Counted from the first letter of the stretch, positions 3,845 to 50,700 are shown. The stretch is 64,000 nt of DNA from Methanobacteriota archaeon (GCA_017885655.1 JAFNFQ010000032.1:1258-65257); one strand, 5' to 3'. Notes: generated by a model from the sequence alone, not told the origin. Numbers and translations: made by a program.

Positions 3845-4939
3845 ATGAAATCGATTATCGAAGACACGCTTTCTAGAGATGCTTCTGTCGTGCAGCCGGA
3901 GGACTCGAGGGTCGATCACGAGCTGGAGGACCTCCTCGCGAAGATGAGGACGAACATCAAGATCATCGGGGTCGGCGGTGGCGGGAGCAACACCATCGCG
4001 CGAATCACCGAGGAGGGGATAGTCGGCGCGGAGCTCATAGCCGCGAACACCGACGCACAGCACCTCTTCGCGATCAGGGTCCCGAAGAAGATACTCCTGG
4101 GCCGCAGGACGACTAAGGGCCTGGGTGCGGGCGCCCTTCCCCAGATAGGCGAGGAGGCTGCGAGAGAGGCGGAGGACGAACTCAAGGCGGCACTCCAGGG
4201 GGCCGACATGGTCTTCGTGACGTGCGGCCTCGGCGGGGGGACCGGCACGGGCAGCAGCGGCTACATCTCGAAGATGGCACGAGACCTGGGGGCGCTGACG
4301 ATTGGCGTGGTAACGATGCCCTTCAAGGGAGAAGGCAGGCTCCGCATGGAGAGCGCGGAGTGGGGGCTGGAGCGCCTCAGGAACTCCGCAGACACCGTCG
4401 TCACGATCCCGAACGACAGACTTCTCGATTTGGTGCCGCGCATGCCCCTCAATGCTGCATTCAGGTTCGCGGACGAGGTGCTGATGAGGTCGATCAAAGG
4501 CCTCACCGAGGTCATCACGAAGCCCGGCCTTGTCAACCTCGACTTCAACGACATCAAGACGATCATGAAGGGAGCCGGAGTGGCGATGATAGGCCTGGGC
4601 GAGAGCGAGGCGATGGGGGAGGAGAGGGCGATAGAGGCGATCGACGAGGCGATCAACTCGCCCCTGCTCGAGGTGGACATCAGCCAGGCGAACGGAGTCC
4701 TGGTGAACGTGATCGGCGGGAACGACATGACCGTGACCGAGGCCGAGCGCGTCGCCGAGGTGGTCCAGACGAAGGTGAGCCCGAACGCCAGGATAATCTG
4801 GGGCGCGACCGTCGACCCGACGCTGGAGCACAAGCTGCGCGTGATGCTGGTCGCCACGGGGGTCAAGAGCAAGCAGATCACGGGCCGCAGGGACCTCCCG
4901 CCGACCTCGCAAAGGATGGGCATGGACGTCGTGAGATAG
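3845..4939 (+). CDS. ftsZ: cell division GTPase FtsZ (tubulin/FtsZ family), paralog A
   Basis: KIIGVGGGGSNTI, the glycine-rich tubulin signature [11 protein letters not shown], and FtsZ C-terminal domain motifs. Confidence 0.9.
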   Translation: MKSIIEDTLSRDASVVQPEDSRVDHELEDLLAKMRTNIKIIGVGGGGSNTIARITEEGIVGAELIAANTDAQHLFAIRVPKKILLGRRTTKGLGAGALPQIGEEAAREAEDELKAALQGADMVFVTCGLGGGTGTGSSGYISKMARDLGALTIGVVTMPFKGEGRLRMESAEWGLERLRNSADTVVTIPNDRLLDLVPRMPLNAAFRFADEVLMRSIKGLTEVITKPGLVNLDFNDIKTIMKGAGVAMIGLGESEAMGEERAIEAIDEAINSPLLEVDISQANGVLVNVIGGNDMTVTEAERVAEVVQTKVSPNARIIWGATVDPTLEHKLRVMLVATGVKSKQITGRRDLPPTSQRMGMDVVR

Positions 4940-5084
4940 GAGTCTGGCCGTTCTGGGGACAGCCTCATCAGGCCAGCGCAGCCACCCAGGGCAGCAACCA
5001 TTCCGAAAAGCTTTATAGAGACCCTTGGTTACGTCCACCTAAACCTGACCAGGGTTTGCTCGTGATTCAGATGGAGGCATCTCC

Positions 5085-19441: not shown

Positions 19442-22400
19442 TCAATTGAAATCGGTCAGCCCGGACTGGCCGATGAGCGGTCCCTTCACCGCCTCCTCGC
19501 CAGCTCCGAGCTGCTCCTTGATCTTCCTCGCGACGGCGGGTCCGATGCTCGGTATCCTCGCGATGTCCCCCGCCTCCGCCTTCTGAAGGTCCCGCAGGGT
19601 CTTGTACCCTCTGGAGAACAGCGCCCTGCCCCTCACCCGCCCGACGCCCCGCAGCTCCACCAGGGGCAGCAGCTCCTCCTTCACGCCGTACGTCTCCCGC
19701 AGCACGAGGCGGCTCACCGGTCTGACCCGCGCCTTGTTGAATATCCGCGCTAGCTCCTGCATTGAGTAGAGGAGCCACCTAGCCTGCTCCGTCATCCGCC
19801 TGATGTCACCAGGCCCGATGCTGAACCTCTTTGTGATGTCGTTCTCCGGCCTCTCGTCCATCCAGTCTTCTAGGAGCGCGGCGGTCTTGACCTCCGCCAT
19901 CATGAAGTCGTAGTCGTCCACAGGGAAAGTCAATCCCTCGAAGACTATCTTCTCGTCGACCCACTGGTAGTCCCCTCGCCTCAGGTAGAGCTTGGGCATG
20001 TCAGGCGTGGAGCAGACCGCCCATAGATGTGCGAAGTTGCTCTCCAGCTCGCTCTCGAGGTGGTCCCTCATCTTCACCGCAGACAGGGGATCGATGTAGA
20101 GGTCGGAGGTCCTCTTGCCGAAGAGCGTCGCCCTGAGCGTGTCCTTGGCGGTGATGAAGCCCTCGCGTTCCAGGAAGCTGAGCACCCCCACGACCTTGTC
20201 CCTGATGTTCTCGATGTCCTCGCAGTGCGCGAAGAATGTGGAACCTATGAAGTCGAATATCTCCCGCTCGGTCTTTGTGTGCTCGGTCGCGATGCTCGCG
20301 AGGATGTGCACTCTGAGCGCAGGTTCGGTCCCGAGCTTGGAGACTATCGCCTCCGGCTTGCTCAGGAAGTACGCGTCCGTGAGTTCCTTGATGTCCTCCT
20401 CCTTCTTGGCGATGAGGATGGCCTCTCCGAACTTGTCATATCGGGGTCTCCCAGCGCGGCCGCACATCTGCTTAATCTCGAGCACGGGGATTGGCGCGTT
20501 GCCGTAGGTCACGTCGAACCTGCTGAGGTCTCTGACGACGACACGCCGAGCAGGCAGATTGATGCCTGCCGAATTGTGCACCGAGAAGGCGAAAGAGCAG
20601 ACGTAACTCTCATCGCCCTCAACATGGAGATTGAAGACATCGCCATCATATGGAACGCGCCTAATCCTGCGAATCGGCGACCTAAATGACATGCCGACGA
20701 GGTTCTTGGTATTGTAGGTCCGATTCCCCTTTTGAATCTCGTCAGGACTCACGCCCATTATTTCAACCAGAAACCGGGCACCTTGCGTTCCTGCAATGGC
20801 GAGGAGGTACTGTGTGTTCTTCCCCATACCTCGAGGTTTGCTGGTGCGTGTCGAAGGCATGTATCCGAGCCGCCTGAGCATTCTTGACATCTGTTCGGCT
20901 AGCCTCGGAGAGACTGTCGAGAACCTGGATACTGCCCAGCGTCGAGGATCAATCGTGCCATCTCCCTCCCAAGCCCCCCTAACGAGTCCCTTGATTGCAT
21001 CGAGCGGAGCCCGAACCATGTACTCTGGGAAATGCTTCTTTGTGGCTCCTCTGCCGAACGATCTATCGAGGAACTGGGCCAGAGCTTTGGAGCATGCCCC
21101 CACAATCCTGCGATGTCTGGAATGATCCTTGACTTTCGGCACGAGATGAAACGAATCCCTCATGCAGCGGGATATGAAGTCAGTCAAGTCCTGCTCGTAG
21201 GTCGCGATGGCGAAACCAATCCCACCGTTTCGTGCAGTAAATCCTTCAGCCACATAGAGTCCGAAGAATCGAGCGTGGTCCTCGCTTAACTCGAGCAGAT
21301 GCGGGACGGGTCTGGCTGAAGGATGCGGGAAGACAGAGCCGAATTGGTTGCGACCCACGAAATTCATGTCATGAATCGGGAGGACGAGCGTCCCTCCGTC
21401 GGGGAGAAATTCGGGAACCTCGAGAGGTACTTGCACCTCATCGTCAATCTTCAATTCCTTGGCTTGGACCCACTCAGGTTCACTTCGAACAATCTTGTGC
21501 CAAACGCCATCTTTCCCATGGTGGCCAAACCTATAGCGCGTGTTCCTGAGGACCTTGTGTTCTGGGGTCATCAGGACTGGCAGCATCCCGTCGGCTTTCA
21601 CTTCCATCAAGTTCCCATCGAAATGGCGCTTGGATGTTCCAATGACCTTTCGGAATCGGCCGCGATGTGTGAGGACTTCATCGCCTTTCTTGAGATCTGA
21701 GATCTTGATTGGGCCACGTAATGTTGTGATCCGGGTATCAGGATGAAGGCAGAGAGTAGGGGTCGCAACGATGCACTTGATCTTGCCTTTCTTGAAGTTC
21801 GTCTCCACCATCCGTCTCTGGTCGTTTGTCAAGCCAGCGTTGTGGAACGCAGCTCCGCCCTCGACGCACTTCGCGAGGCGCGCGACCATCGACGTCGGCT
21901 CATCCTGCCGCTTCGATAGGTCCTCTGCCATCTCGGCAAGTTTCTCCCGCTCCTTAGGCTCGATGGCCTGCTTCAGGCGGGAGGCCAGGCTCGTTGCGAG
22001 AGCCTCCGTCGATCTCCGTGTGTTCACGAAAATCAGGCACTGCCCGCCCTCTCTGACCGTGTCCATCACCAGGGCAAGGAGCTCCTCGCCCTCTGGCGGG
22101 ACCGGTCTCGACGAGCCATCGGTGAAGTGGATCTTGTCGTTCCAGCAGATGCCTTGTTTCAAAGGGACTGGCCGCCACTCGCTCCTGAAATGCTCCGCCT
22201 CCAGCCAGTCGGCGAGCTCGTCGGAGTTCCTGATGGTTGCTGAGAGAGCTATGATCTGCGCGCGCGGGTTGACCTGCCTCATCTTGGCCAGGGTCACCTC
22301 GAGGGTTGGCCCCCGGTCGCCGTCGTTGATGAGATGCACCTCGTCTGCGACGACCGTGGTCAGCCTCTTCAGCCAACTCGTCTTGTGCCGGAGGAGAGAG

Positions 22401-22798
22401 TCCGCTTTCTCCGATGTCGCGATGATGATGTCGTATCGTTCCAGAGTCGGGTCGGGAGTGTCGTAGTCCCCGACGGCGAGGCCCGTCTTGATCCCGAGCG
22501 AGTCGAACTCCTTCAGGTCATCATACTTCTCTGACGCGAGGGCTCTGAGAGGGACGATGTAGAGCGCCTTGCCTCCCGCCATGACAGACTTGACGGCGGC
22601 TAGGTAGGCGATTAGCGACTTGCCTGCTGCGGTGGGAATGGCCAGTACTATATTCTTTCCCGCCAGAGCGGCACCAATAGACTCGGCCTGCGGCGGGTAC
22701 AGCTCCTCTATTCCCTGCTTGAAGAGAATCGAGACAATCCTTTCGTCGAGACCGAGGTCCGAGACCTTCATCTGGCGAGGGATTATGGCGGGTGTCAA
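19442..22798 (-). CDS. hel308: Hel308/Hjm Ski2-type DNA helicase, interrupted by an in-frame intein
   Basis: N-terminal ELYPPQAESIGAALAGKNIVLAIPTAAGKS (motif I) and DEVHLI (motif II). C-terminal winged-helix, ratchet and HhH domains. Helicase motif VI ATPTL|SAGINLPARRV is split by a ~393-aa insertion. Confidence 0.85.
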   Translation of the reverse strand: MTPAIIPRQMKVSDLGLDERIVSILFKQGIEELYPPQAESIGAALAGKNIVLAIPTAAGKSLIAYLAAVKSVMAGGKALYIVPLRALASEKYDDLKEFDSLGIKTGLAVGDYDTPDPTLERYDIIIATSEKADSLLRHKTSWLKRLTTVVADEVHLINDGDRGPTLEVTLAKMRQVNPRAQIIALSATIRNSDELADWLEAEHFRSEWRPVPLKQGICWNDKIHFTDGSSRPVPPEGEELLALVMDTVREGGQCLIFVNTRRSTEALATSLASRLKQAIEPKEREKLAEMAEDLSKRQDEPTSMVARLAKCVEGGAAFHNAGLTNDQRRMVETNFKKGKIKCIVATPTLCLHPDTRITTLRGPIKISDLKKGDEVLTHRGRFRKVIGTSKRHFDGNLMEVKADGMLPVLMTPEHKVLRNTRYRFGHHGKDGVWHKIVRSEPEWVQAKELKIDDEVQVPLEVPEFLPDGGTLVLPIHDMNFVGRNQFGSVFPHPSARPVPHLLELSEDHARFFGLYVAEGFTARNGGIGFAIATYEQDLTDFISRCMRDSFHLVPKVKDHSRHRRIVGACSKALAQFLDRSFGRGATKKHFPEYMVRAPLDAIKGLVRGAWEGDGTIDPRRWAVSRFSTVSPRLAEQMSRMLRRLGYMPSTRTSKPRGMGKNTQYLLAIAGTQGARFLVEIMGVSPDEIQKGNRTYNTKNLVGMSFRSPIRRIRRVPYDGDVFNLHVEGDESYVCSFAFSVHNSAGINLPARRVVVRDLSRFDVTYGNAPIPVLEIKQMCGRAGRPRYDKFGEAILIAKKEEDIKELTDAYFLSKPEAIVSKLGTEPALRVHILASIATEHTKTEREIFDFIGSTFFAHCEDIENIRDKVVGVLSFLEREGFITAKDTLRATLFGKRTSDLYIDPLSAVKMRDHLESELESNFAHLWAVCSTPDMPKLYLRRGDYQWVDEKIVFEGLTFPVDDYDFMMAEVKTAALLEDWMDERPENDITKRFSIGPGDIRRMTEQARWLLYSMQELARIFNKARVRPVSRLVLRETYGVKEELLPLVELRGVGRVRGRALFSRGYKTLRDLQKAEAGDIARIPSIGPAVARKIKEQLGAGEEAVKGPLIGQSGLTDFN
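20573..21751 (-). mobile_element. intein (Hint domain + LAGLIDADG homing endonuclease) inserted in hel308 motif VI
   Basis: Begins with Cys right after ATPTL and ends in VHN followed by Ser, the +1 extein residue. LAGLIDADG-like blocks FFGLYVAEGF and GLVRGAWEGDGTI. Confidence 0.75.
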
Positions 22799-22988
22799 TA
22801 AAGGTTCTCGGTGGCGGGTGTGAAAGTGACATGCGCGGGATGGAATGTTTCCCCGTGCGAATCAAGGACCCTTACATTGAATGCGACCTCCTCTGCACAC
22901 GGACCGGTCTCCTCCAAGCCGGATTGGACGATTTCCATGTTGGGGTGCCTCGCATCGTGGCAGACTTGTCTTGCGCAACATATGGCGG

Positions 22989-23329
22989 GACTTCCGCTGA
23001 TCACAGCGGAGTCTCCGAAGAACACAACGGAGTTGCCGCTGAATGCAGCGGACTCTGCGCTGAACGGGGCGCATCTTCCGCTGATCACAGCGCACATTGC
23101 GCTGAACAGGGCGGAACTTGCGCTGATACATCGGACTTCACGCTGGTTTCGGCGGGGTTTCCGCTGAACGCGGCGGAGTCTCCGCTGATTGCAGCGCACT
23201 TTCCGCGGAACAGGGCGGAACTTGCGCTGAACGCAGCGGACCTCGCGCTGAATTCAGGGGGTTTCCGCTGAACACAGCGCACTTTCCGCTGGACCGGGCG
23301 GGCTTTCCGCTGGGTGAGGCGGACTTCTC
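22989..23329. repeat. tandem array of ~16 degenerate 21-bp units (consensus ~CCGCTGAACGCAGCGGACTTC). Each unit carries a short inverted repeat (CGCTG-N4-6-CAGCG) able to form a hairpin
   Basis: CCGCTGA/GCGCTGA recurs at 22994, 23015, 23036, 23057, 23078, 23099, 23120, 23141, 23161, 23182, 23203, 23224, 23245, 23266, 23287 and 23308. The period is exactly 21 nt, with one 20-nt unit. Confidence 0.85.
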
Positions 23330-41229: not shown

Positions 41230-41867
41230 CCCCTCTCCTGGATTTCCCGTATCACAAAGAACACAATGAATGCGATGATCAGCAGGATTCCCGCCAACGC
41301 AAACGAGGTGCCGAAATCGCCCATCTGGGTGTGCTGCATGATTGCCGTCGTGATAACCTGCGTCGACCCTTCGATGTTGCCGCCGACCATCCAGACCGCG
41401 CCGACCTCGCTGATCGCCCTTCCGAAACCGACCATCACCGCCCCGAAAATCCCGAACCTGGCCTCGTGCATCACCCTCATCATGAGCTGCCTGTTGCTCG
41501 CGCCAAGCGTCCTGATGGTGAGACGCACGCTCTCGTCGACGTCAGAGACGGCCGACATGGTGAGTCCGGTCACGAGCGGGAAGATGAGCACCGACTCGGC
41601 GAGCACCATACCTATAGGCGTCCAGAGCCAGTCCAGGAAACCGAGCGGTCCACTGTGCGAAAGCGTCGTGTAGATGACCAGACCGACGACGACTGAAGGG
41701 AGCGCGAAGAGCGTGTAGACGCCTGTCCTCATGAGCCAGCTGCCGCGGAATCTCTTCAAAGCGAGGAATGCGCCAAGCGGCAATCCGACCAGCGAAGTCA
41801 GGACGGTTGCGGTAATCGACACGTAGAGAGAAAGCGCAACGACCTGAGCGATGTCAAGTCCGCCCAA
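41226..41867 (-). CDS. tupB: ABC transporter permease (tungstate type)
   Basis: About 6 TM helices and an EAA-like loop. 4-nt overlap with the ATPase gene. Confidence 0.65.
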   Translation of the reverse strand: MGGLDIAQVVALSLYVSITATVLTSLVGLPLGAFLALKRFRGSWLMRTGVYTLFALPSVVVGLVIYTTLSHSGPLGFLDWLWTPIGMVLAESVLIFPLVTGLTMSAVSDVDESVRLTIRTLGASNRQLMMRVMHEARFGIFGAVMVGFGRAISEVGAVWMVGGNIEGSTQVITTAIMQHTQMGDFGTSFALAGILLIIAFIVFFVIREIQERG

Positions 41868-41886
41868 GTGAGGAATCCTCCATCGA

Positions 41887-42750
41887 TCAGGGCTCCGCGT
41901 TCGGGAAGAAGAGTTGGTGGCCGTTGGCCGTGTATGATGCCATCAGCTCCTGCGTCTCCGGGCTCACAATCCATTCCGCGAACAGCACTGCGTACTTCAC
42001 GTTGACGTTCAGGTTCTTCGCGGGATTGACGGGGATCACGCTGTACTGGTTGAAGAGCGCGGTATCGTTTCGGAAGAGCTCGACGATGCTGAGCATCTGG
42101 ATGAGCGTGAAGTACGTCCCCTCGTCAGTCAGGGTATAGCCCCCCAGTCCGTCAGTCATCATGAGCGTGTCCTCCATACCCTTTCCGACCTTCATGTACC
42201 AGGAGCCGAACTGACTCGTGTTCAATCCCGCCAGGCCCCATATCTGCATCTCTTTCGTGTAGGTCCCAGAGTTGTCCGACCTCGAGAGGAACGTGGAGGA
42301 GTTATCTGCGATTTTCTTGAACGCCACGGTCACGTTCCAGGCACTCCCCACGCCGGCGGGATCGCCCGAGGGGCCGACTATCGCGAACTGGTTGTGCATC
42401 ACTTGCCATTTGAAGATGCCGTACCCCTGGTCCATGAATGGCGCCTCCAGCGAAGGCGCGTGCGAGAGAACGACATCTGCATCCCCCCTCTTTGCGGTCT
42501 CGAGCGCCTGGCCTGACCCGACGGCCACAACATCGACCTTGACGCCGTACTTCGATTTGAAGTCGGGCAGCATGTAGTCCAGAAGCCCGGAGTTCTGCGT
42601 GCTCGTCGTCGTGGCAAGGATCAGCCTCGATTCGGCGGGAGAGAAGGCGCCTGAGATGGCGAGACCCGCCGCCACAAGGACGACCGCGACAACGACAACT
42701 GCCAGCATCAACCACTTCGTCTTGTTCATGGGAGTTGCCAACCCGGGCAT
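41887..42750 (-). CDS. tupA: tungstate ABC transporter substrate-binding protein
   Basis: Signal/TM anchor, then LATTTSTQNSGLLDYMLPDFK...VDVVAVGSGQALE...DADVVLSHAP, which is TupA-like. Confidence 0.65.
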   Translation of the reverse strand: MPGLATPMNKTKWLMLAVVVVAVVLVAAGLAISGAFSPAESRLILATTTSTQNSGLLDYMLPDFKSKYGVKVDVVAVGSGQALETAKRGDADVVLSHAPSLEAPFMDQGYGIFKWQVMHNQFAIVGPSGDPAGVGSAWNVTVAFKKIADNSSTFLSRSDNSGTYTKEMQIWGLAGLNTSQFGSWYMKVGKGMEDTLMMTDGLGGYTLTDEGTYFTLIQMLSIVELFRNDTALFNQYSVIPVNPAKNLNVNVKYAVLFAEWIVSPETQELMASYTANGHQLFFPNAEP

Positions 42751-42858
42751 CGCCGTTCGCTAGATAATCTTGATGACCCGCCGCGAAAGGAGCACTCCCA
42801 CGGCGGCACTTCTCGCAAAACTTAATAGAGGAAGTCAGGATACGAGGCGCGGTGGAAC

Positions 42859-43452
42859 ATGAAGAGCATTGACGCCCTCGTGAAGAAGGCGATGGATTAC
42901 AAAAAGAAAGGCCTGAAGGAGGACGAAATAGCAGACGAGCTGCACCTCTCGAAGGACACGATCATCTGGCTGCTGACCCGCGGCCTGAAGGGCGGCGAGC
43001 CGCCTAAGGACGTCAAGATCGGCTGGCGCTCCATCGGTGTCATGGGCAACAGGATAGCGGCGATGGCTTCCTCCATGACCGACATCATCCTCGAGGAGAC
43101 GGAGAAGAGCGGCAACGAGCCGCAGTGCGTCGCCGGCATTGCGATCAACGGCATACCTTATGCCACATGCATATCCGAGGAGCTGGGGGGCGAGCTGGCG
43201 ATATACAGGCCCCCGAGCGAGAGAGGGAAGGCGGGCGGTCATTTCTCCAGCAACTACGCCGCGGTTCAAAATAAAAAAGTGATCTTCGTTGATGACGTCG
43301 TGAGCACCGGTGAAACGATGAAGGGCGCGATAGCGGACGCGCGAGCTTCCGGCGGCACTCCGATCCTCGCGGTCGTCTTGGTGAACAAGACGGGACAGGA
43401 CGAACTGGACGGCGTCCCCCTGCGAGCGCTCATCCGCGCCAGGTCAATCTAG
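42859..43452 (+). CDS. orotate phosphoribosyltransferase-like regulator (GfcR family: N-terminal HTH + PRTase domain)
   Basis: N-terminal HTH (EDEIADELHLSKDTIIWL) and a PRPP-binding motif VIFVDDVVSTGETM. Confidence 0.65.
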   Translation: MKSIDALVKKAMDYKKKGLKEDEIADELHLSKDTIIWLLTRGLKGGEPPKDVKIGWRSIGVMGNRIAAMASSMTDIILEETEKSGNEPQCVAGIAINGIPYATCISEELGGELAIYRPPSERGKAGGHFSSNYAAVQNKKVIFVDDVVSTGETMKGAIADARASGGTPILAVVLVNKTGQDELDGVPLRALIRARSI

Positions 43453-45062
43453 TGGTGCAGATGCACTGGTTCGACGAGCTCCTCGGGAAGGCGGAGGAGT
43501 TCCTTCATGGGCGTGAGAGAGTCCTCTGCAACGCGGGTCTGAGCGTCTCCGGTCTGCAGCATGTAGGTCGTCTCAGAGGCGAAATCGCGCTCAACCATGC
43601 GATAGTCAGAGCATTGAGATTGAAAGGAAAGAAGGCCTCTCAGAACCTTGTACTATACACCCAAGACCAATGGAAGGGCAAGGAGGGCCAGCTGAGCAGG
43701 TTCAAGGCCGGAGAAGGGAACGAATACGTCGGCCAGAAGTTGATAGATGTCCCGGATCCTGAGGGCTGCCACAAGAACTGGGTGGAGCACTACTGGATCG
43801 ACTTCGGGGACTATCTGGACAGGTTCGCCCCCGGGATAAGCGTGATCAGCACGACGGAAGTCTACTCCCGCCAAGACATGAAGGACCTCGTCATCGAGCT
43901 CGTGGGTAAGAAGGAGGCCGTGCGGGAGGTGGTGAATAAATACCGCAGCAGGAAGCCCTACCCGCCGGACTGGATTCCATTCGAGGCCTATTGCGAGAAG
44001 TGCCAGCGCGTCGGCAGCGCCAAGACGCTGGAGCTCCTTCCCGATTACAGGGTGCGTTACGAGTGCGAATGCGGCAACTCCGGGGATTCCCCCATCGAGA
44101 AGGGGAAGCTGAACTGGCGGCTCGAATGGCCGGCCCTGTGGAAGGTCCTGAAGGTCGATGTCGAGCCTTTCGGGAAGGACCACGCCGCTCCTGGCGGGTC
44201 AAGGGACAGCTGCAAGGAAATCGCGCAGAAGATCATGGGGATGGAGGCGCCGTTCCCGATCCCTTACGAGTGGGTCGGGCTGGGGCGGGGAGGGAAGGAC
44301 CTCGGGGACATGGGCTCGTCAGACTTCATCGGTTTCACTCCGAAACAATGGCTGGAAATCGGCGACCCGGAGGTCATCCGCTACATCTACTTCGTCAATC
44401 CAATCTCGAGGCGGGTGATCCTCGACATGAGCAAGGTGGACTCATATCACGATCTCTACGATTCCGCAGAGAGGGCGTATCATTCCGCGAAGAGGAACGA
44501 GGAAGAGGAGGTCGCGGCTCGGAGCTTCGAACTCGCGCTCGTCGAGAAGACGATGGAGGAGATGCCGTTCCAGCTCTCATACCGCCACGCGGCATACCTG
44601 TCGCAGATCTCACCGGCAGAGCACAAGGTGAGCTGGTGCATCCAGCGACTGAGGGACACCGGCATGCTTTCCCTGCCTTTGACGCCGTTCGAGGAGGGCA
44701 GGATAGAGAGAAGGCTGATGCACGCGATGAAATGGGTGGAGCTCTATTCACCCGAGAACAAGGTCACGCTTCTGCAGGAGTTGACAAAGGAAGTGGGGGA
44801 GCAGCTCGACGATATGGACAGGGGAGCGCTTTCGATGTACCTCAGGGCGGCTACGCCGACCGAATGGCGGGAGGATGCGATAAAGGAGTCCATGGTCGCG
44901 CTCACAAAGAGCGGGAAATTGCCGGTCGAGACTCCTCGCTTCTTCAGAGATCTGTATCTGGTGCTCCTCGGACAGGAGAGGGGCCCGCGCGCTGCACCTT
45001 TCCTGGCGGTGCTGAAGAAGGAATGGGTCCTGGAGAGGCTGAAGGAATCAGCAAAAGCCTAG
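43452..45062 (+). CDS. lysK: lysyl-tRNA synthetase, class I (archaeal type)
   Basis: VPDPEGCH, GKDHAAPGGS, KMSKS-equivalent GDMGSSD and C-terminal LYLVLLGQERGPRAAPFLAVL all align with Pyrococcus class I LysRS. Confidence 0.75.
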   Translation: MVQMHWFDELLGKAEEFLHGRERVLCNAGLSVSGLQHVGRLRGEIALNHAIVRALRLKGKKASQNLVLYTQDQWKGKEGQLSRFKAGEGNEYVGQKLIDVPDPEGCHKNWVEHYWIDFGDYLDRFAPGISVISTTEVYSRQDMKDLVIELVGKKEAVREVVNKYRSRKPYPPDWIPFEAYCEKCQRVGSAKTLELLPDYRVRYECECGNSGDSPIEKGKLNWRLEWPALWKVLKVDVEPFGKDHAAPGGSRDSCKEIAQKIMGMEAPFPIPYEWVGLGRGGKDLGDMGSSDFIGFTPKQWLEIGDPEVIRYIYFVNPISRRVILDMSKVDSYHDLYDSAERAYHSAKRNEEEEVAARSFELALVEKTMEEMPFQLSYRHAAYLSQISPAEHKVSWCIQRLRDTGMLSLPLTPFEEGRIERRLMHAMKWVELYSPENKVTLLQELTKEVGEQLDDMDRGALSMYLRAATPTEWREDAIKESMVALTKSGKLPVETPRFFRDLYLVLLGQERGPRAAPFLAVLKKEWVLERLKESAKA

Positions 45063-45141
45063 ATCGCCTTGGTGAGCTCGCGCCCCGCCGGAATATCATG
45101 GAAAAGCGCAAATAACGCGTGTGATGTCCTTCCGAGACGAT

Positions 45142-45247
45142 AGCCCCGTGGGGTAGCGAGTCCGATGGGCTTCGCGCCCTCGGACCTACAAGCCAGGCCT
45201 TCGAGGTTCTGGGCCTCGCGACGGCAGTTCGAATCTGCCCGGGGCCA
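45142..45247 (+). tRNA. tRNA gene with a probable ~33-nt intron at a non-canonical (D-loop) position. The anticodon stem-loop CGAGG-TTCTGGG-CCTCG suggests Gln(CUG)
   Basis: Acceptor AGCCCCG/CGGGGCC (6/7 pairs; A1 opposite C72). T-arm GGCAG-TTCGAAT-CTGCC. Length is 106 nt against a normal ~73. The isotype is uncertain. Confidence 0.5.
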
Positions 45248-45346
45248 TACTTCCCCTCCATCATGTTTTCAGGATTTCAGCTCATGGTCGAGGTCGCCAT
45301 TCAAAGGAATGTGGCAGAAGGGAAACGCTTAAGGCTAGTGTAACAC

Positions 45347-45598
45347 ATGTACTACTTGAGTGAAGAAATGGACACGACAATCCGCGAACTCGACGACGAC
45401 CTCTACCGGCAGGCCAAGGCCAAGGCGGCCCTCATGGGGATCTCCATCGGACGCGCGATGAACGAGGCCCTGCGGAAGTGGATTTCAGAAGGCAGCGGAC
45501 CTAAGAAGGGGAGCATCCTCGATCTGAAACCGGTGAGATTCGGGAAGGGAAGCGAGCATCTCAGCGAGGAGATCGACAAGGTCCTGTATGGGGAGTGA
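45347..45598 (+). CDS. vapB: antitoxin VapB (ribbon-helix-helix/CopG-like)
   Basis: An 83-aa protein whose stop overlaps the start of the PIN-domain gene. Confidence 0.65.
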   Translation: MYYLSEEMDTTIRELDDDLYRQAKAKAALMGISIGRAMNEALRKWISEGSGPKKGSILDLKPVRFGKGSEHLSEEIDKVLYGE

Positions 45599-46005
45599 AA
45601 ATGCTACTGTTGGACGCTAGCGTGATAGTCGCTTTCAGGAATGCCGACGATGTGAACCACGAGAGGAGCGTGCGGGTGTTCGAGGACCTGGCGAATGGCA
45701 AGTATGCGAACGGCCTCGTTAGCGAATATGTGCTTCTTGAGACTGTGACAGTATTGAAGAGGAAGTGTGGGCCGACGATCGCAATCGAAACCGGCGAGGC
45801 GCTTCTCGACTCGAAGGAAATCAAAGTCCTCCCATCTGGAGACCTGTTCGATGCCTCCTGGAAGGAATTCGTGAACCTTTCGAAGACGAAGCTGAGCTTC
45901 GTCGATGCCTCCAATCTCGTTGCCATGCGGATGTACGGGACTCGGGAGATAGCGACATTCGACCAAGAATACCGCAAAATCAGGGGCATAGAAGTCGTAG
46001 GATAG
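45595..46005 (+). CDS. vapC: PIN-domain toxin VapC
   Basis: N-terminal LLDASVIVAF, a PIN acidic motif. 136 aa with a conserved Asp pattern. Confidence 0.7.
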   Translation: MKMLLLDASVIVAFRNADDVNHERSVRVFEDLANGKYANGLVSEYVLLETVTVLKRKCGPTIAIETGEALLDSKEIKVLPSGDLFDASWKEFVNLSKTKLSFVDASNLVAMRMYGTREIATFDQEYRKIRGIEVVG

Positions 46006-46121
46006 ACTGCGCAACCCCGCGTCGAGGTAGGATGGCGCCTCATTTCCGAGCTTTTTCTGGGCATCCTTTTGTCAGGTGCCTGTCGAAAATGCTTATACGG
46101 AGACGCGGCTTGACGGAACGT

Positions 46122-46192
46122 AGCCCCGTGGTGTAATGGCAGCATAAGAGGCTCTGGACCTCTTGGCATCGGTTCGAATCCGGTCGGGGCTG
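46122..46192 (+). tRNA. tRNA-Gln (anticodon CUG)
   Basis: Acceptor AGCCCCG/CGGGGCT. D-stem GTGT/GCAT. Anticodon stem AGAGG/CCTCT with loop CTCTGGA. T-arm ATCGG-TTCGAAT-CCGGT. Discriminator G, no CCA. Confidence 0.8.
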
Positions 46193-46221
46193 CATCTCCA
46201 TTGAAGACTTGGTGAAAGAAG

Positions 46222-47907
46222 GTGGAATCCAAGGAAGCGCCTCGCGACTTCATCAGGAAGATCATCGACGAGGACAACAAGAGCGGGCGGTTCGGCGGCA
46301 GAGTGCACACACGCTTCCCGCCGGAGCCCAACGGCTTCCTCCACATCGGCCACGCCAAGTCCATCTGCCTTAACTTCGGGATCGCAAAGGAGTACGGCGG
46401 CCTCTGCAACCTGCGCTTCGATGACACGAACCCATTGAAGGAGGAGCAGGACTACGTCCGCGCGATTGAGGAGGATGTCAAGTGGCTCGGGTTCGACTGG
46501 GAGGACAGATTGTTCTTCGCATCGGACTATTTCGGGAAGATGTATGAGCATGCCGTCCAGCTCGTGAAGGCCGGGAAGGCCTATGTGGATGACCTGACGG
46601 CTGACGAGATCCGCGACTACAGGGGGACTCTGACTACGCCCGGGCGGGATAGCCCCTTCCGGAACCGTTCGGCAGATGAGAATCTGAACCTGCTCGAGCG
46701 CATGCGGGCGGGCGAATTCGCGGACGGAGCGAAGGTGCTCCGAGCGAAGATCGACATGGCGCATCCCAACCTGAACATGCGCGACCCCGTGATGTACCGC
46801 ATACTCCACGCCAAGCACCACAACACCGGGGACAAGTGGTGCATCTACCCCATGTATGATTGGGCCCATGGATTGGAGGATTCGATAGAGGGGATCACGC
46901 ATTCCATATGCACACTGGAGTTCGAGGACCATCGCCCTCTGTACGACTGGTATCTTGACGCGCTCGGGGTCTACCACCCGCAGCAGATAGAGTTCGCTCG
47001 CCTTGCCCTCACGTATACTGTCATGAGCAAGAGGTTCCTCCTGCAGCTCATCGAGAAGGGCTATGTCCGCGGGTGGGACGATCCACGCCTGCCGACATTG
47101 CGCGGGCTGAGGCGGCGAGGCTACCCGCCTACGGCAATCCGCACCTTATGCGAGCGCATCGGCGTCGCGAAGGTGAACAGCACGGTTGACATCGAGTTCC
47201 TGGAGCACTGTGTGAGGGAGGATCTCAACAAGACGGCCCCACGGTTCAGTGGCGTCCTCCGACCCCTCCGTATCGTCATCGAGAACTACCCAGAGGACAA
47301 GATGGAGGAGTTCGAAGCTGTGAACAATCCGGAGGACCCCGCCGCCGGGAAGAGGAAAGTGCCTTTCTCCCGCGTCCTATACATCGAGCAAGAGGATTTC
47401 ATGGAGAACCCTCCACCAAAGTACTACAGGCTCGCCCCGGGAAGAGAGGTCCGTTTGCGCTACGCGTATCTCATCACCTGCAAAGAAGCGGTCAAGGAGA
47501 ACGGGAACCTCGTGGAGCTCAGGTGCACGGTGGATCCGGATACGCGCGGAGGGAACGCGCCGGAAGGACGGAAGGTGAAATCCACGCTGCACTGGGTGTC
47601 AGCTGCCCACGCTGTCGACGCAGAAGTCCGTCTGTACGACAAGCTGTTCACAGTCCCGGACCCCCTCGCTCAGGAAGGCATGGATTTCAAGGACCTCATC
47701 AACCCGAAATCGAAGGAGGTCATCACAGCCTGCAAGGCCGAGCCAGCCGTGCGGGGCCTCAAGCCATACGACCGGTTCCAGTTCGAGCGGATAGGATATT
47801 TCTGCGTGGACCCGGACACGACCAACGACCACCTCGTGCTGAACAGGACCGCGACCCTCCGCGACCAATGGGCCGCCATTCAGGAGCGTGGCCAATCAGG
47901 AAAATAG
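46222..47907 (+). CDS. glnS: glutaminyl-tRNA synthetase (bacterial/eukaryotic-type class I GlnRS)
   Basis: The N-terminus [63 protein letters not shown] is near-identical to the E. coli GlnS signature. 561 aa, full length. Confidence 0.9.
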
Positions 47908-48033
47908 AGAAACCGACGCCATCTTCGCTTGCCTGGGCCCATGGAGATGTGGTCACTTCTTTCCGCCAATTCGAACCAGGGCAGATAGCCTATCAATAAA
48001 TACCTCATCCGCTTTCGGTGCGCCGGGGATAGA

Positions 48034-48462
48034 ATGGTCCGAGAGGTTGACTATAAACCGAAGCCCATAGACGCCGAATTCCTGAACAAGCCCGGTGACT
48101 ACCCTGTGACAGGCAAGCACGTCGAGCACGAGATCAGGGGAGAGGGCAAGCAGCGCATGGACGCTGAGAACAAGCCCTACCCGACCAAGCTCGGCATCCA
48201 CGGCCATCATGTGGCTGTCGATTTCGAGACATGCGTCGCCGACGGAGCATGCCAAGACGTATGCCCAGTCGATGTCTTCGAGTGGCTGCTGAACTCGGGG
48301 AACAAGGGGACAGGCAATGACAAGGTCCTGGAGAAGGGCTCGCCGGACTGGCAGAAGTACAGGACCGACAAGGCCGATCCCGTCCGAGAGGGCGACTGCA
48401 TCGACTGCATGGCGTGCGAGACGGCCTGCCCTGTGCTGGCGATAAAGATTACGCCTGGCTAA
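48034..48462 (+). CDS. 4Fe-4S dicluster ferredoxin-domain protein
   Basis: Two cluster motifs, CVADGACQDVCP and CIDCMACETACP. Confidence 0.7.
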   Translation: MVREVDYKPKPIDAEFLNKPGDYPVTGKHVEHEIRGEGKQRMDAENKPYPTKLGIHGHHVAVDFETCVADGACQDVCPVDVFEWLLNSGNKGTGNDKVLEKGSPDWQKYRTDKADPVREGDCIDCMACETACPVLAIKITPG

Positions 48463-48718
48463 GCAGGAATCGGGGTCCTCTGGGCGCAGGACTCCTTCGC
48501 CGCGAATCAGCTGTGGCAAGTGTGACCGGGAAAGCTCCCTCGATCACGTGCACTGGACAACGGCCGCCCTTCCCCTCAAATCGTTATCGCGGCTGATATC
48601 CGCGCCGAAACCGGCTTGAAGCCTGGCTTGACCTTTGGCTGGCAATGGTGTTCGTTTTAACAGTTGGGGGAATCGTGGCATTTGGACGTCTCGCTGAACG
48701 ACAGGGTGGTGGCCCCCC

Positions 48719-49165
48719 TTGATGCCCGTGAACGAGCGAGGGGTGAACAAGGTGCTTGGCTGCAGCTTGTTCCGGACTGGAGACGAGGAGCCGATGACAG
48801 TCGTGTCCGAGATACTCAGACGGAGCGGCGTGAAGGTCGGGAAGGTCGATAAGAAGATCAAACAAATCACGGGGAGAATCGGGTCGTTCCTCGACCCATA
48901 CGCGTGCAAGGTTACCGCCCATATCTACAATCAGAAATCGATGAGCTTCGTCGAACTTGTCTGCGGGGGGACATGGGGCAGACCGGGGGAAAAGGTTCTG
49001 TCCACCTACATCAAGATCCTCTGTCACAACTTCGATGACCTTTCGCTCGACAACATCGAAAGGTCGATTGACTGGGAGCGGAGCGATTTGAAGGGATTGG
49101 AATCTCGCAGGGCTCGCACACAAGCCGTTGCGCTCATCAAGAACATCGAGGCGGAAATGAGGTAG
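48719..49165 (+). CDS. hypothetical protein immediately upstream of the small GTPase (possible GTPase partner)
   Basis: A 148-aa ORF co-directional with and 19 nt upstream of the GTPase gene. No confident family. Confidence 0.4.
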   Translation: MMPVNERGVNKVLGCSLFRTGDEEPMTVVSEILRRSGVKVGKVDKKIKQITGRIGSFLDPYACKVTAHIYNQKSMSFVELVCGGTWGRPGEKVLSTYIKILCHNFDDLSLDNIERSIDWERSDLKGLESRRARTQAVALIKNIEAEMR

Positions 49166-49184
49166 AAAGGGGGCCTGCATACCC

Positions 49185-50000
49185 TTGATAGAGAAAACGA
49201 GCAAGACCAAGCTCAAGATCTGCATCGTCGGGGAGAAGTCGGTAGGCAAGACGTCGCTTCTCGAGAGGTATGTCTTCGGCACCTTTGGCGGTGACTCAGG
49301 GGCCTCTTCCGGCACGAAGATGTCTCTAATGAGTTCCAGGAACGTCGAGGCGGGCGGCAAGGTGGTCGACGTTGATGTGGCCTTCTTCGACCTCATGGGT
49401 GCGACGGCGGTTAGGGATTCCTTCAAGGAGGTGTTGTTCTGGGGCGCACACGGTTTCTTGGCGGTGGCGGACATGACGAGGTCGGAAACGATCCGCGCTC
49501 TCCCTGCCTGGGTGAAGGTCGTGAGGTCTATTGCGGGGGAGATTCCGTTCCAAGTGCTCCTCAATAAAGCCGACCTGGCACCTGGAGGCGAAATGAATTC
49601 TGAGGACAATGGTTGGTTCAATTCACGGTTCCCCAAGACGCGGTATCATCTCGTCAGCGCAAAAAGCAGCGTCGGAGTCGAGGACGGCATCGACGCGCTC
49701 TTGAAGGCCGTCATCGAAAGCATCCTCGCAAAAGCCGCCGAGAAGAATGAGACACCCGTTCGAGTCGGCGAGATCAGCAGGAAGATCCTATCCTTCGCCA
49801 AGAGGAGGAGCCCCATAGGCGTCCCCAAGAAAGACCTCCTGATGGTCATCAAGAACGTGGACCACGATTCCTTGATGGCGGAGATCGAAGAGCTCAGGAA
49901 GAACGGGCTTGTGACGATCGAGCTGACGGGGCCGGCGTCGTTCCTCGTCAAGATCACCGAGAAGGGGGAGAAGCATCTAGAGCTGGCCGCGAAGCACTGA
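49185..50000 (+). CDS. Ras-like small GTPase with a C-terminal winged-helix-like extension
   Basis: G1 GEKSVGKTS, G3 DLMG, G4 NKAD and G5 SAK. The C-terminal ~90 aa (VIKNVDHDSLMAEIEELRKNGLVTIE) look HTH-like. Confidence 0.8.
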   Translation: MIEKTSKTKLKICIVGEKSVGKTSLLERYVFGTFGGDSGASSGTKMSLMSSRNVEAGGKVVDVDVAFFDLMGATAVRDSFKEVLFWGAHGFLAVADMTRSETIRALPAWVKVVRSIAGEIPFQVLLNKADLAPGGEMNSEDNGWFNSRFPKTRYHLVSAKSSVGVEDGIDALLKAVIESILAKAAEKNETPVRVGEISRKILSFAKRRSPIGVPKKDLLMVIKNVDHDSLMAEIEELRKNGLVTIELTGPASFLVKITEKGEKHLELAAKH

Positions 50001-50139
50001 ATCCGAGTCGAGTGCGGCAGCAAAACTGGCGACCTAATGGACAAGGGCCTCGAACGTCGCAGAATTCGAACACCAAGTTCCTTACGTGTCCTCCTCACAG
50101 GCGGGCATCTGTCTATTCATTCCGCATCCGTTGAAGCAG

Positions 50140-50700
50140 CATGCGCCCCGCCATCGCCCAAGTCGGGCCGGATTGAACGGGATGGCGCTTTCTCGGCGGC
50201 AACCCGCGCGCAATCCTCCGTCTCCACTCCTTGGGCTCCTTAGATTTGCGAACGGTTGTGGTGAGGGTCGGCAGCTCCTCCCGCCATCGTCGGGCGGTCG
50301 CCCCGAGACTCCGCTCGGTTGCCCGGGGATTTTTCTCGATCCCTCGGGATGTTCGCTCAATCTTCCTCGGCCCGCGGGCGGTTGCGCGGAGGTTCCGCGC
50401 AGGTCTCTCGGGCATCAGACGGTGTTCCGGGACTATCGCTCGGTCGCCCGGGGCCTTCGAGCGGTCGTCCGGGGTCGTCGCGGGATTGCCCCGGGACGTA
50501 GGGCGGTTGCGCGGAGGTTCGGGACGTTTGTCCGGAAGCTCGGCGGAGCGTTCGAGGGTGTCCGACGGCTGGTCTGGACCTTCGAAGAGCCTTCCGGCCT
50601 CTCCGTGCGATTGCGCGGGACTTCTGAGCGTTTGTCCGAGAATCCCTCTCGGTTGCGCGTAATTTCGAGGCGACCGCCCTGAAGCGCCGCTCTATCGCCC
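50140..50700. repeat. GC-rich degenerate tandem repeat block with ~125-bp higher-order periodicity
   Basis: GGGCGGTTGCGCGGAGGTTC occurs at 50376 and 50500. CTCGGTTGCCCGGGG at 50313 matches CTCGGTCGCCCGGGG at 50438. Many shorter CGGG/TTCG-containing subrepeats are present. Confidence 0.6.

Follow-up and report, generated by a model that had tools for sequence, protein, structure and literature searches.

A predicted bacterial-type glutaminyl-tRNA synthetase gene linked to an archaeal-type tRNA-Gln in an uncultured Thermoplasmatota lineage

The archaeal route to Gln-tRNA-Gln runs through a glutamyl-tRNA synthetase (GluRS) that is non-discriminating and through GatDE, acting on a tRNA-Gln with A73 and A1-U72; GatDE recognises the D-loop and A1-U72, not the anticodon (PMC9499178, PMC8007984). 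Reviews from 2016-2022 hold that no archaeon encodes a glutaminyl-tRNA synthetase (GlnRS) (PMC5388404, PMC7373986, PMC8007984, PMC9499178), and the reason they give is that archaeal tRNA-Gln, with A73 and A1-U72, is incompatible with the bacterial or eukaryotic enzyme. One paper words the absence as applying to 'almost all archaea', and a 2024 preprint describes GlnRS genes adjoining coxABC in Heimdallarchaeia (bioRxiv 10.1101/2024.07.04.601786). Some archaea hold a horizontally acquired asparaginyl-tRNA synthetase (AsnRS), a transferred amide-amino-acid synthetase that gives a direct route beside or instead of the tRNA-dependent one, which for Asn-tRNA depends on GatCAB (PMC9499178). Here we describe a locus at 45142-47907 of a 64,000-nt stretch from a Methanobacteriota archaeon (GCA_017885655.1, JAFNFQ010000032.1:1258-65257; the whole stretch is called the window below), in which glnS, predicted to encode a bacterial-type GlnRS, follows a tRNA-Gln(CUG) gene. 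Like the Heimdallarchaeia genes it is a GlnRS gene in archaeal metagenome-assembled genomes (MAGs), but the phylum and the genomic context are different, and no tRNA linkage is described there. The GlnRS annotation is already in public MAG records (NCBI, JGI), and the existence of the enzyme is no discovery; the novelty lies on the tRNA side and in how its evolution is read. Our literature search, beyond whose reach lay Di Giulio 2020 (which we have not read and which may reportedly list archaeal GlnRS), found no paper describing the Thermoplasmatota GlnRS clade or its tRNA linkage.

We consider it quite probable, on comparative sequence evidence, that an uncultured Thermoplasmatota lineage has in this locus its resident module for direct glutaminylation. 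An ancestor of the lineage would have taken up a bacterial-type glnS from Bacteria in a single event, and the gene would have been inherited since; in one large subclade it sits beside the archaeal gene for class I lysyl-tRNA synthetase (LysRS), and it stays physically linked to an archaeal-type tRNA-Gln(CUG) of what we call family I. A TATA box at about -27 would drive a joint transcript of this tRNA (tRNA 2) and glnS, which tRNA end-processing would then separate. The conserved residues suggest that GlnRS charges family I tRNA-Gln directly with glutamine, and the native tRNA paralogue may have been adapted to the foreign enzyme via G73. An upstream tRNA of family II (tRNA 1) would have gained an insertion bounded by a bulge-helix-bulge (BHB) motif and a 1-72 mismatch, and appears to be in the course of loss in sister genomes, while vapBC would be an unrelated small insertion. 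The features of the locus are the following (L with a number denotes a locus compared with the window).

43452-45062 (+): lysS, gene for an archaeal class I lysyl-tRNA synthetase (Pfam tRNA-synt_1f, 291 bits; NCBIfam lysS_arch equivalog, 303 bits, cut-off 148)
45142-45247 (+): tRNA 1, a family II tRNA-Gln(CUG) with A73, a D-loop insertion and A1xC72 (sequence, fold, and ARAGORN after removal of the insert)
45159-45191 (+): D-loop insertion of 33 nt, a putative archaeal intron (BHB motif read manually from the sequence; minimum-free-energy (MFE) fold)
45347-45598 (+): vapB-like gene for an RHH antitoxin (FitA-like RHH at 21.8 bits, short of its gathering score, 27)
45595-46005 (+): vapC, gene for a PIN-domain toxin (Pfam PIN, 50.8 bits, cut-off 23.6)
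46085-46098 (+): TATA-like box GAAAATGCTTATAC, about 27 nt 5' of tRNA 2, kept in the window, L083, L085 and L086
46122-46192/3 (+): tRNA 2, a family I tRNA-Gln(CUG) with G73 (ARAGORN; Rfam tRNA, 59.7 bits)
46211-46215 (+): Shine-Dalgarno-like GGTGA, 7 nt 5' of the glnS GTG start
46222-47907 (+): glnS, predicted bacterial-type GlnRS of 561 aa with a GTG start (open reading frame (ORF), Pfam, NCBIfam)

The enzyme of this locus is closest to those of the E. coli and P. aeruginosa GlnRS:tRNA-Gln systems (1gsg/1qtq, 5bnz). The first-pass annotation had recognised a canonical GlnRS signature in glnS, and this holds for the complete 561-aa ORF, whose product scores 703 bits against NCBIfam TIGR00440 (glnS; cut-off 426) and 844 bits against NF011291 (cut-off 681); the archaeal GluRS (gltX) model gives 343 bits, under its cut-off of 402. 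Pfam finds tRNA-synt_1c (PF00749, 347 bits) and the C-terminal anticodon-binding domains PF03950 and PF20974, all at full length. Among chains of solved structures, P. aeruginosa GlnRS (5bnz) scores highest with 719 bits, followed by the E. coli (683), human (480) and yeast (401) enzymes and by archaeal GluRS (184). The protein aligns from residue 2 of E. coli GlnRS, and the eukaryotic N-terminal extension is lacking. Identity to the E. coli enzyme is 55% over 547 aligned residues, and among the matches listed it is 60-70% to bacterial GlnRS from many phyla. Given this order of bit scores and the level of bacterial identity, the predicted protein is a bacterial-type GlnRS, an ordinary member of the bacterial family. 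Contig and metagenome scans with the GlnRS query gave matches that, among those listed, were nearly all bacterial loci at 60-72% identity, and these were used as outgroup. One gene call containing GlnRS (P0002) is 832 aa long.

Residues that matter for glutaminylation are kept throughout the archaeal copies. In an alignment numbered after E. coli GlnRS (with a reference sequence that agrees exactly with PDB 1gsg), 49 of 49 archaeal copies have H40, H43, D66 and K270 (catalytic), R30, Y211, C229 and Q255 (glutamine pocket) and the residues that read C34/U35/G36 of the anticodon (R341, R402, R410, Q517, R520), and 46 of the 49 have the acceptor-stem wedge L136. Compared with three close relatives, the ratio of nonsynonymous to synonymous substitution rates (dN/dS) is 0.10-0.11 for glnS and 0.11-0.13 for lysS. 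Because the residues are conserved and dN/dS is about 0.1, like that of lysS, glnS looks fully functional. We found little to support an adaptation of GlnRS to the archaeal acceptor stem: there are only two clade-specific substitutions, at E. coli positions 326 and 510, and neither is among the tRNA-contact residues checked. Accelerated or relaxed evolution of glnS is ruled out by a dN/dS equal to that of lysS; among close relatives glnS exceeds adjacent lysS 2-3.4 times in dS while sharing its dN/dS, an excess that agrees with mosaic recombination in the flanks. Nucleotide identity of the window to L083, L085 and L087 over 41800-50100 is itself a mosaic, in which the PRT gene matches L085 at 100% over 43001-43400, next to a PBP gene at 71-84% identity. 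This mosaic identity, together with the raised glnS dS, suggests frequent homologous recombination among these populations.

The locus has in common with the bacterial systems the three-domain layout, HIGH and KMSKS, the glutamine pocket, the wedge L136 and the anticodon readers. On the tRNA side, the window's linked tRNA carries G73, G2-C71, G10 and a weak 1-72 pair, as in the E. coli identity set. The differences are that the host is an archaeon, and that the partner tRNA has A1-U72 instead of U1-A72, C3-G70 instead of G3-C70 and G37/A38 instead of A37/U38, with a 4-nt variable loop and no encoded CCA; moreover, in several archaeal sublineages the tRNAs that accompany the enzyme have A73.

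Neighbour-joining on 207 sequences (49 archaeal and 158 bacterial or metagenomic; 542 columns) places all 49 archaeal copies in one clan with bootstrap 100/100. The enzyme is found in many Thermoplasmatota MAGs: over 100 clusters came up in a protein search, their identity to GlnRS being 75-91%, under the source names Thermoplasmata, Thermoplasmatales, Methanomassiliicoccales, Thermoplasmatota archaeon and Euryarchaeota archaeon RBG_16_68_12 (taxon labels of relatives are as given by the depositors), and two clade members come from closed genomes, 1.9 and 3.2 Mb in size (CP070798.1, CP070739.1). One sequence labelled 'Petrotogales bacterium' (P0061), from a 6-kb contig, nests inside the archaeal clade and is probably from a mis-binned archaeal contig. 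The setting of glnS in the window is archaeal as well, with the lysS_arch equivalog, a Hel308 with archaeal domain 4, HVO_0163-type regulators and archaeal-type tRNAs.

The LysRS gene is the conserved 5' neighbour; it is syntenic with glnS in L083-L087 and L168-L172, and we used it as a vertical marker. The order DUF885-PRT-LysRS-(tRNA)-glnS is conserved in one of the two main archaeal subclades down to a LysRS identity of 53-55%, the same gene order recurs in more than 12 independent assemblies (NCBI, ENA, JGI), including two closed genomes, and glnS is present in all relatives compared. The GC content at third codon positions (GC3) is 0.80 in glnS vs 0.79-0.82 in its neighbours, with no GC step. 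GlnRS looks to have come ultimately from Bacteria by horizontal transfer. The single clade, the conserved synteny, the matching GC3 and a dN/dS of about 0.1 make it look as if glnS crossed from a bacterium to an archaeon a single time, long ago, and has since descended vertically within the lineage. Of the horizontal acquisition proposed in the first-pass annotation, then, the bacterial type of the enzyme and its ultimate transfer stand, but not a recent cassette, since the clade is monophyletic and synteny is kept. That annotation had itself named, as evidence that would tell against it, a vertically inherited archaeal GlnRS clade throughout the lineage and the lack of a compositional anomaly, and this is essentially what the monophyletic, widespread clade and the unremarkable composition amount to.

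The tRNA-Gln(CUG) reported just upstream of glnS is called by both ARAGORN and Rfam, and tRNA 2 ends 29 nt before the glnS GTG start. Its cloverleaf has the anticodon CUG, the pair A1-U72, a variable loop of 4 nt and a short D-loop, and CCA is not encoded, but the discriminator is G73 and not A73. Comparing the tRNAs of 16 distinct archaeal glnS loci, we define family I by a D-stem GUGU/ACAU, a D-loop of 7-8 nt and G12-C23, the assignments to families being based on short alignments. A family I tRNA-Gln(CUG) lies 4-80 nt 5' of glnS on the same strand in 14 of the 16 loci, and this linkage extends to subclade A, despite different flanking genes there. A tRNA-Gln(UUG) stands just downstream as well in L081, L088, L160, L168 and L170.

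Several of these arrays have features of their own. In L174 (about 2145-2205) the upstream tRNA-Gln(CUG), which is counted in the 14, has an internal D-arm deletion and an altered 5' end and is not called by ARAGORN; either pseudogene status or a mistake in assembly may account for this. The CUG and UUG tRNA-Gln genes that flank glnS in L168 (9858-9928 and 11737-11807) are identical except at anticodon position 34, and those of L170 (9926-9996 and 11766-11837) differ also just 5' of the anticodon stem; all four have A73, and the near-identity of these isoacceptors suggests recent duplication or gene conversion. L160 (3886-6067) has the order tRNA-Gln(CUG, G73)-glnS-tRNA-Gln(UUG, A73)-tRNA-Gln(UUG, G73)-tRNA-Glu(UUC), and therefore both discriminator types for the same anticodon, UUG. 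In L088 (5796-6014), ARAGORN in intron mode calls a tRNA-Glu with a 55-nt intron. Linkage is also seen on the bacterial side, where about 12 of 156 glnS loci among the matches listed have a bacterial-type tRNA-Gln(CUG) within about 1 kb on either strand (L009, L015, L016, L028, L063-L065, L071, L127, L156, L161, L167), so the glnS-tRNA-Gln linkage recurs independently in Bacteria.

It had been proposed that the cognate tRNA was transferred together with glnS, and here the evidence points the other way. The tRNAs at archaeal glnS loci are all archaeal-type in these traits: A1-U72, a 4-nt variable loop, CCA not encoded. tRNA 2 is 52-58% identical to bacterial glnS-linked tRNA-Gln vs 79-85% to its archaeal CUG orthologues. 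Being archaeal-type and so distant from its bacterial counterparts, the tRNA would not have been imported with the enzyme. A co-transferred bacterial tRNA is ruled out by these identities and by the bacterial glnS-linked tRNA-Gln(CUG) genes themselves, which have U1-A72 and often encode CCA. The sequence of tRNA 2 is 100% identical in five genomes among which glnS dS is 0.47-0.99, and this invariance indicates that the tRNA is under very strong constraint.

How tRNA 2 and glnS may be expressed is suggested by the sequence around them. Within the 29-nt spacer there is neither a T-run nor a TATA box or other promoter, the TATA-like box lies about 27 nt 5' of tRNA 2, and GGTGA stands 7 nt before the GTG; we infer that the two genes are co-transcribed from the box at 46085-46098 and then split by tRNA processing. 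GGTGAA is conserved before glnS in L083-L087. CAG, the codon that CUG reads, is the dominant glutamine codon, with 192 occurrences vs 51 of CAA in 15 genes.

At position 73 the linked tRNA departs from the reported archaeal norm, which for tRNA-Gln is A73, the bacterial norm being G73 (PMC9499178), and the discriminator belongs to the E. coli glutamine identity set (PMC9976931). Among the upstream family I genes, G73 is found in 10 of 14, across both subclades. It is probable that G73 is an adaptation of a native tRNA paralogue to the bacterial enzyme, and not an obligatory one.

The first-pass annotation also reported a second CUG tRNA with an intron about 1 kb upstream; gene and insertion are both present, but the insertion lies in the D-loop (45159-45191) and not in the anticodon loop. 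In this gene, tRNA 1, the T-arm is perfect (GGCAG/CUGCC), the acceptor stem is AGCCCCG/CGGGGCC, and the anticodon loop, UUCUGGG, reads CUG. Unspliced, it is called by neither ARAGORN nor Rfam, Rfam at permissive thresholds included, while ARAGORN calls a tRNA-Gln(CUG) once about 30-36 nt are taken from the D-loop. In intron mode ARAGORN instead takes 45141-45248 for a tRNA-Gly(CCC) whose cloverleaf is poor and whose anticodon loop holds an intron of 19 nt; we dropped this reading because the D-loop insertion gives a clean tRNA-Gln(CUG), supported by intact orthologues in L169 and L171.

The insertion has the features of an archaeal intron. A central 4-bp helix GUAG/CUAC is flanked by the 3-nt bulges CGA and AAG, with an inner helix of 6 bp (GUCCGA/UCGGAC) and an outer helix of 2 bp, and the helices 12-15/45-48 and 19-24/39-44 are present in the MFE fold. 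Archaeal splicing cuts after the second nucleotide of each bulge; applied here, the rule removes 45159-45191 and leaves a 73-nt tRNA-Gln(CUG) with A73. The motif is retained in L087, and we regard the 33-nt insertion as a putative BHB intron. It resembles archaeal BHB introns at non-canonical tRNA positions in having a 4-bp helix between two 3-nt bulges, and in that cutting after the second bulge nucleotide gives tRNA 1 a normal cloverleaf. It differs in its outer helix of just 2 bp, in its D-loop site in a Thermoplasmatota genome, and in a host gene with signs of decay whose L169 and L171 orthologues are without the insertion.

We place tRNA 1 in family II, defined by a long GGUCAAU-type D-loop and always A73, which matches canonical archaeal tRNA-Gln. 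Intact, intron-less family II orthologues follow LysRS in L169 (84% identity to tRNA 1) and glnS in L171, and related copies occur in L082 and L160. tRNA 1 and tRNA 2 are about 70-75% identical throughout, and the 11-mer TAGCCCCGTGG that had been noticed at both 5' ends is indeed there; as far as the sequences tell, it reflects the paralogy of the two tRNA genes. In the window tRNA 1 has the acceptor mismatch A1xC72, its L087 orthologue has the T-stem mismatch C51xA63, and the orthologues in L083, L085 and L086 have lost the entire 5' half and carry further stem-breaking changes. Because of these mismatches and the 5' losses, tRNA 1 would be a paralogue under relaxed constraint, probably a pseudogene.

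Several observations weigh against the reading of the locus as a resident module with a tRNA adapted to its enzyme. The A73 baseline for archaea without GlnRS is a literature value and does not come from these data. Family I itself has A73 in 4 of the 14 genes (L168, L170, L171, L172), and the sole tRNA-Gln of L082 is family II-like, with A73, and lies downstream of glnS; GlnRS may thus not need G73, or those tRNAs may serve another route. A requirement of the archaeal GlnRS for G73 is weakened accordingly by the four loci that have A73 on the same tRNA body. tRNA 1 is full-length in the window and has a TATA-like box and a T-run, and with such promoter-like and terminator-like flanks it may still be expressed. 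As to origin, the tree was sampled from top database hits and includes no eukaryotic or Asgard GlnRS, and the nearest bacteria in it, Chloroflexi/Dehalococcoidales with three metagenome sequences, join the archaeal clade with 16% support; because of this low value we do not call a donor phylum.

The module and the archaeal route have the product and the domain of life in common, and family II tRNAs (A73 and A1-U72, with C12-G23 in L169) match the canonical GatDE substrate (PMC9499178). The locus differs in its predicted direct-charging synthetase and in the apparent decay, within the window's subclade, of the canonical tRNA copy. Genes for gatD, gatE and GluRS are absent from the 64-kb window, and gatD and gatE are absent from the relatives' flanks that we retrieved. 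The acquired AsnRS offers a second comparison: archaeal tRNA-Asn already has the elements that enzyme needs (G73, GUU), whereas for glutamine a tRNA mismatch is argued by the reviews to block transfer, and here the tRNA side appears changed, by way of a paralogue and of its discriminator. We put forward, tentatively and as a possibility we rate below even, that the lineage overcame the tRNA barrier by dedicating a linked, paralogous tRNA-Gln family (short D-loop, usually G73) to the bacterial GlnRS, and that its genomes represent stages of replacing the GluRS/GatDE route, with the window's genome losing the A73 tRNA and perhaps GatDE.

Alternatively, both pathways could operate side by side, family I (G73) being charged by GlnRS and family II (A73, including spliced tRNA 1) through non-discriminating GluRS and GatDE. 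The coexistence of two tRNA-Gln families in both main subclades (L169, L171, L160), with intact family II copies, would fit such a division, as would the well-formed BHB, TATA-like box and T-run that tRNA 1 keeps in the window; the families also differ mainly in the D-arm, and the D-loop is, with A1-U72, what GatDE reads (PMC9499178, PMC8007984). We nevertheless think it unlikely, because constraint on tRNA 1 appears relaxed in the window's subclade, where A1xC72, C51xA63 in L087 and the 5' deletions of L083, L085 and L086 contrast with an invariant tRNA 2.

It is highly improbable that glnS and a cognate tRNA arrived recently as a cassette, or as part of a tRNA-targeted element, with the two tRNAs marking the ends of the insert. 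Such an event would account for the bacterial type of the enzyme and for two tRNA-Gln(CUG) genes with a common 5' 11 nt on either side of a toxin-antitoxin pair, and the ~12 of ~156 bacterial loci, among the matches listed, with tRNA-Gln(CUG) beside glnS would supply a precedent. Against it stand an archaeal-type and not a bacterial tRNA, a glnS free of GC or GC3 anomaly (a composition check had been suggested, and shows none), and the persistence of the same locus and neighbours across lineages with LysRS just 53% identical. The two tRNAs are paralogues at about 70% identity and not att duplicates. We found no integrase gene among the flanking genes of the locus by Pfam domain search, and no near-identical att-like repeats, the tRNA-derived repeats being paralogous segments at 74-75% identity. 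Only vapBC is variable among relatives, and the tRNA-targeted integration once proposed for this locus is not supported.

The toxin-antitoxin pair between the tRNAs, already reported in the first-pass annotation, is real and appears to have a history separate from that of glnS. An RHH ORF of 83 aa (vapB) and a PIN ORF (vapC) overlap by 4 nt, as expected of a PIN toxin gene with a small overlapping DNA-binding antitoxin gene, the RHH match being sub-threshold; vapC scores 44.9 bits against the NCBIfam VapC subfamily, below cut-off. vapB is 95% identical in L083/L085, and vapBC is missing in L087, which has the closest GlnRS sampled (91%) and about 110 nt between its two tRNAs, and in the more distant L168-L172. 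Alignment with L087 places the boundaries of the indel, about 0.8 kb, at ~45253-46052, and GC3 is 0.69 in vapC vs 0.80 in glnS. By these comparisons vapBC is an independent, small, lineage-specific insertion between tRNA genes.

We regard as extremely improbable that the protein is a GlnRS-derived paralogue with another activity, for example a tRNA-modifying or regulatory one, instead of being the cell's GlnRS. Transamidation is the accepted source of Gln-tRNA in archaea (PMC9499178), and the glnS dS is 2-3.4 times that of lysS among close relatives, but the architecture is full-length, the catalytic, glutamine-binding and anticodon-binding residues are invariant, the scores exceed equivalog cut-offs, dN/dS is about 0.1, and the gene is tightly linked to tRNA-Gln genes. 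An assembly or binning artefact joining a bacterial glnS fragment to an archaeal contig, for which one could cite the high identity to bacterial GlnRS and the clade member labelled 'Petrotogales bacterium', has next to no probability given the same order in more than 12 independent assemblies, two closed genomes among them, a codon composition that matches the archaeal neighbours, and archaeal copies that form their own clade.

Elsewhere in the window, a Hel308-type archaeal helicase gene (19442-22798, -) contains an intein, with Hint_2 and LAGLIDADG_3 between the helicase domains. Between it and the gene for a 1075-aa BNR/DUF11 protein, 22988-23326 holds about 16 tandem 21-nt units, each with a CCGCTG-N4-CAGCGG hairpin; 9 of the 10 matches to this hairpin pattern in the window fall inside the array, with 3.8 expected by chance, and the array is not CRISPR-like because spacers are absent. 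The gene at 49185-50000 (+), for a small GTPase of the Ras/Roc family that is extended at its C-terminus, is kept downstream of the locus in L083 and L085. The segment 50086-50700 is high in GC (0.646), both of its strands carry overlapping arginine-rich ORFs, and 50427-50473 holds a short repeat of 21 nt. At 4295-4975 ARAGORN in intron mode also calls a tRNA-Leu(CAG) whose intron would measure 589 nt, a call that is probably spurious.

If a linked tRNA family was indeed dedicated to the bacterial enzyme, some genomes would keep both tRNA families and others would be midway to losing the ancestral route. The idea of an orthogonality barrier would become testable, both as to which tRNA features (G73, D-loop size) permit a bacterial GlnRS to act on an archaeal tRNA and as to whether GatDE is retained, partitioned or lost. 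The locus would then be a natural example of a synthetase-tRNA pair re-engineered after inter-domain transfer, relevant to orthogonal-pair design. A bacterial-type GlnRS that appears to have become fixed in an archaeal lineage, to be kept by purifying selection and to pass on vertically, contrasts with the picture given in the reviews.

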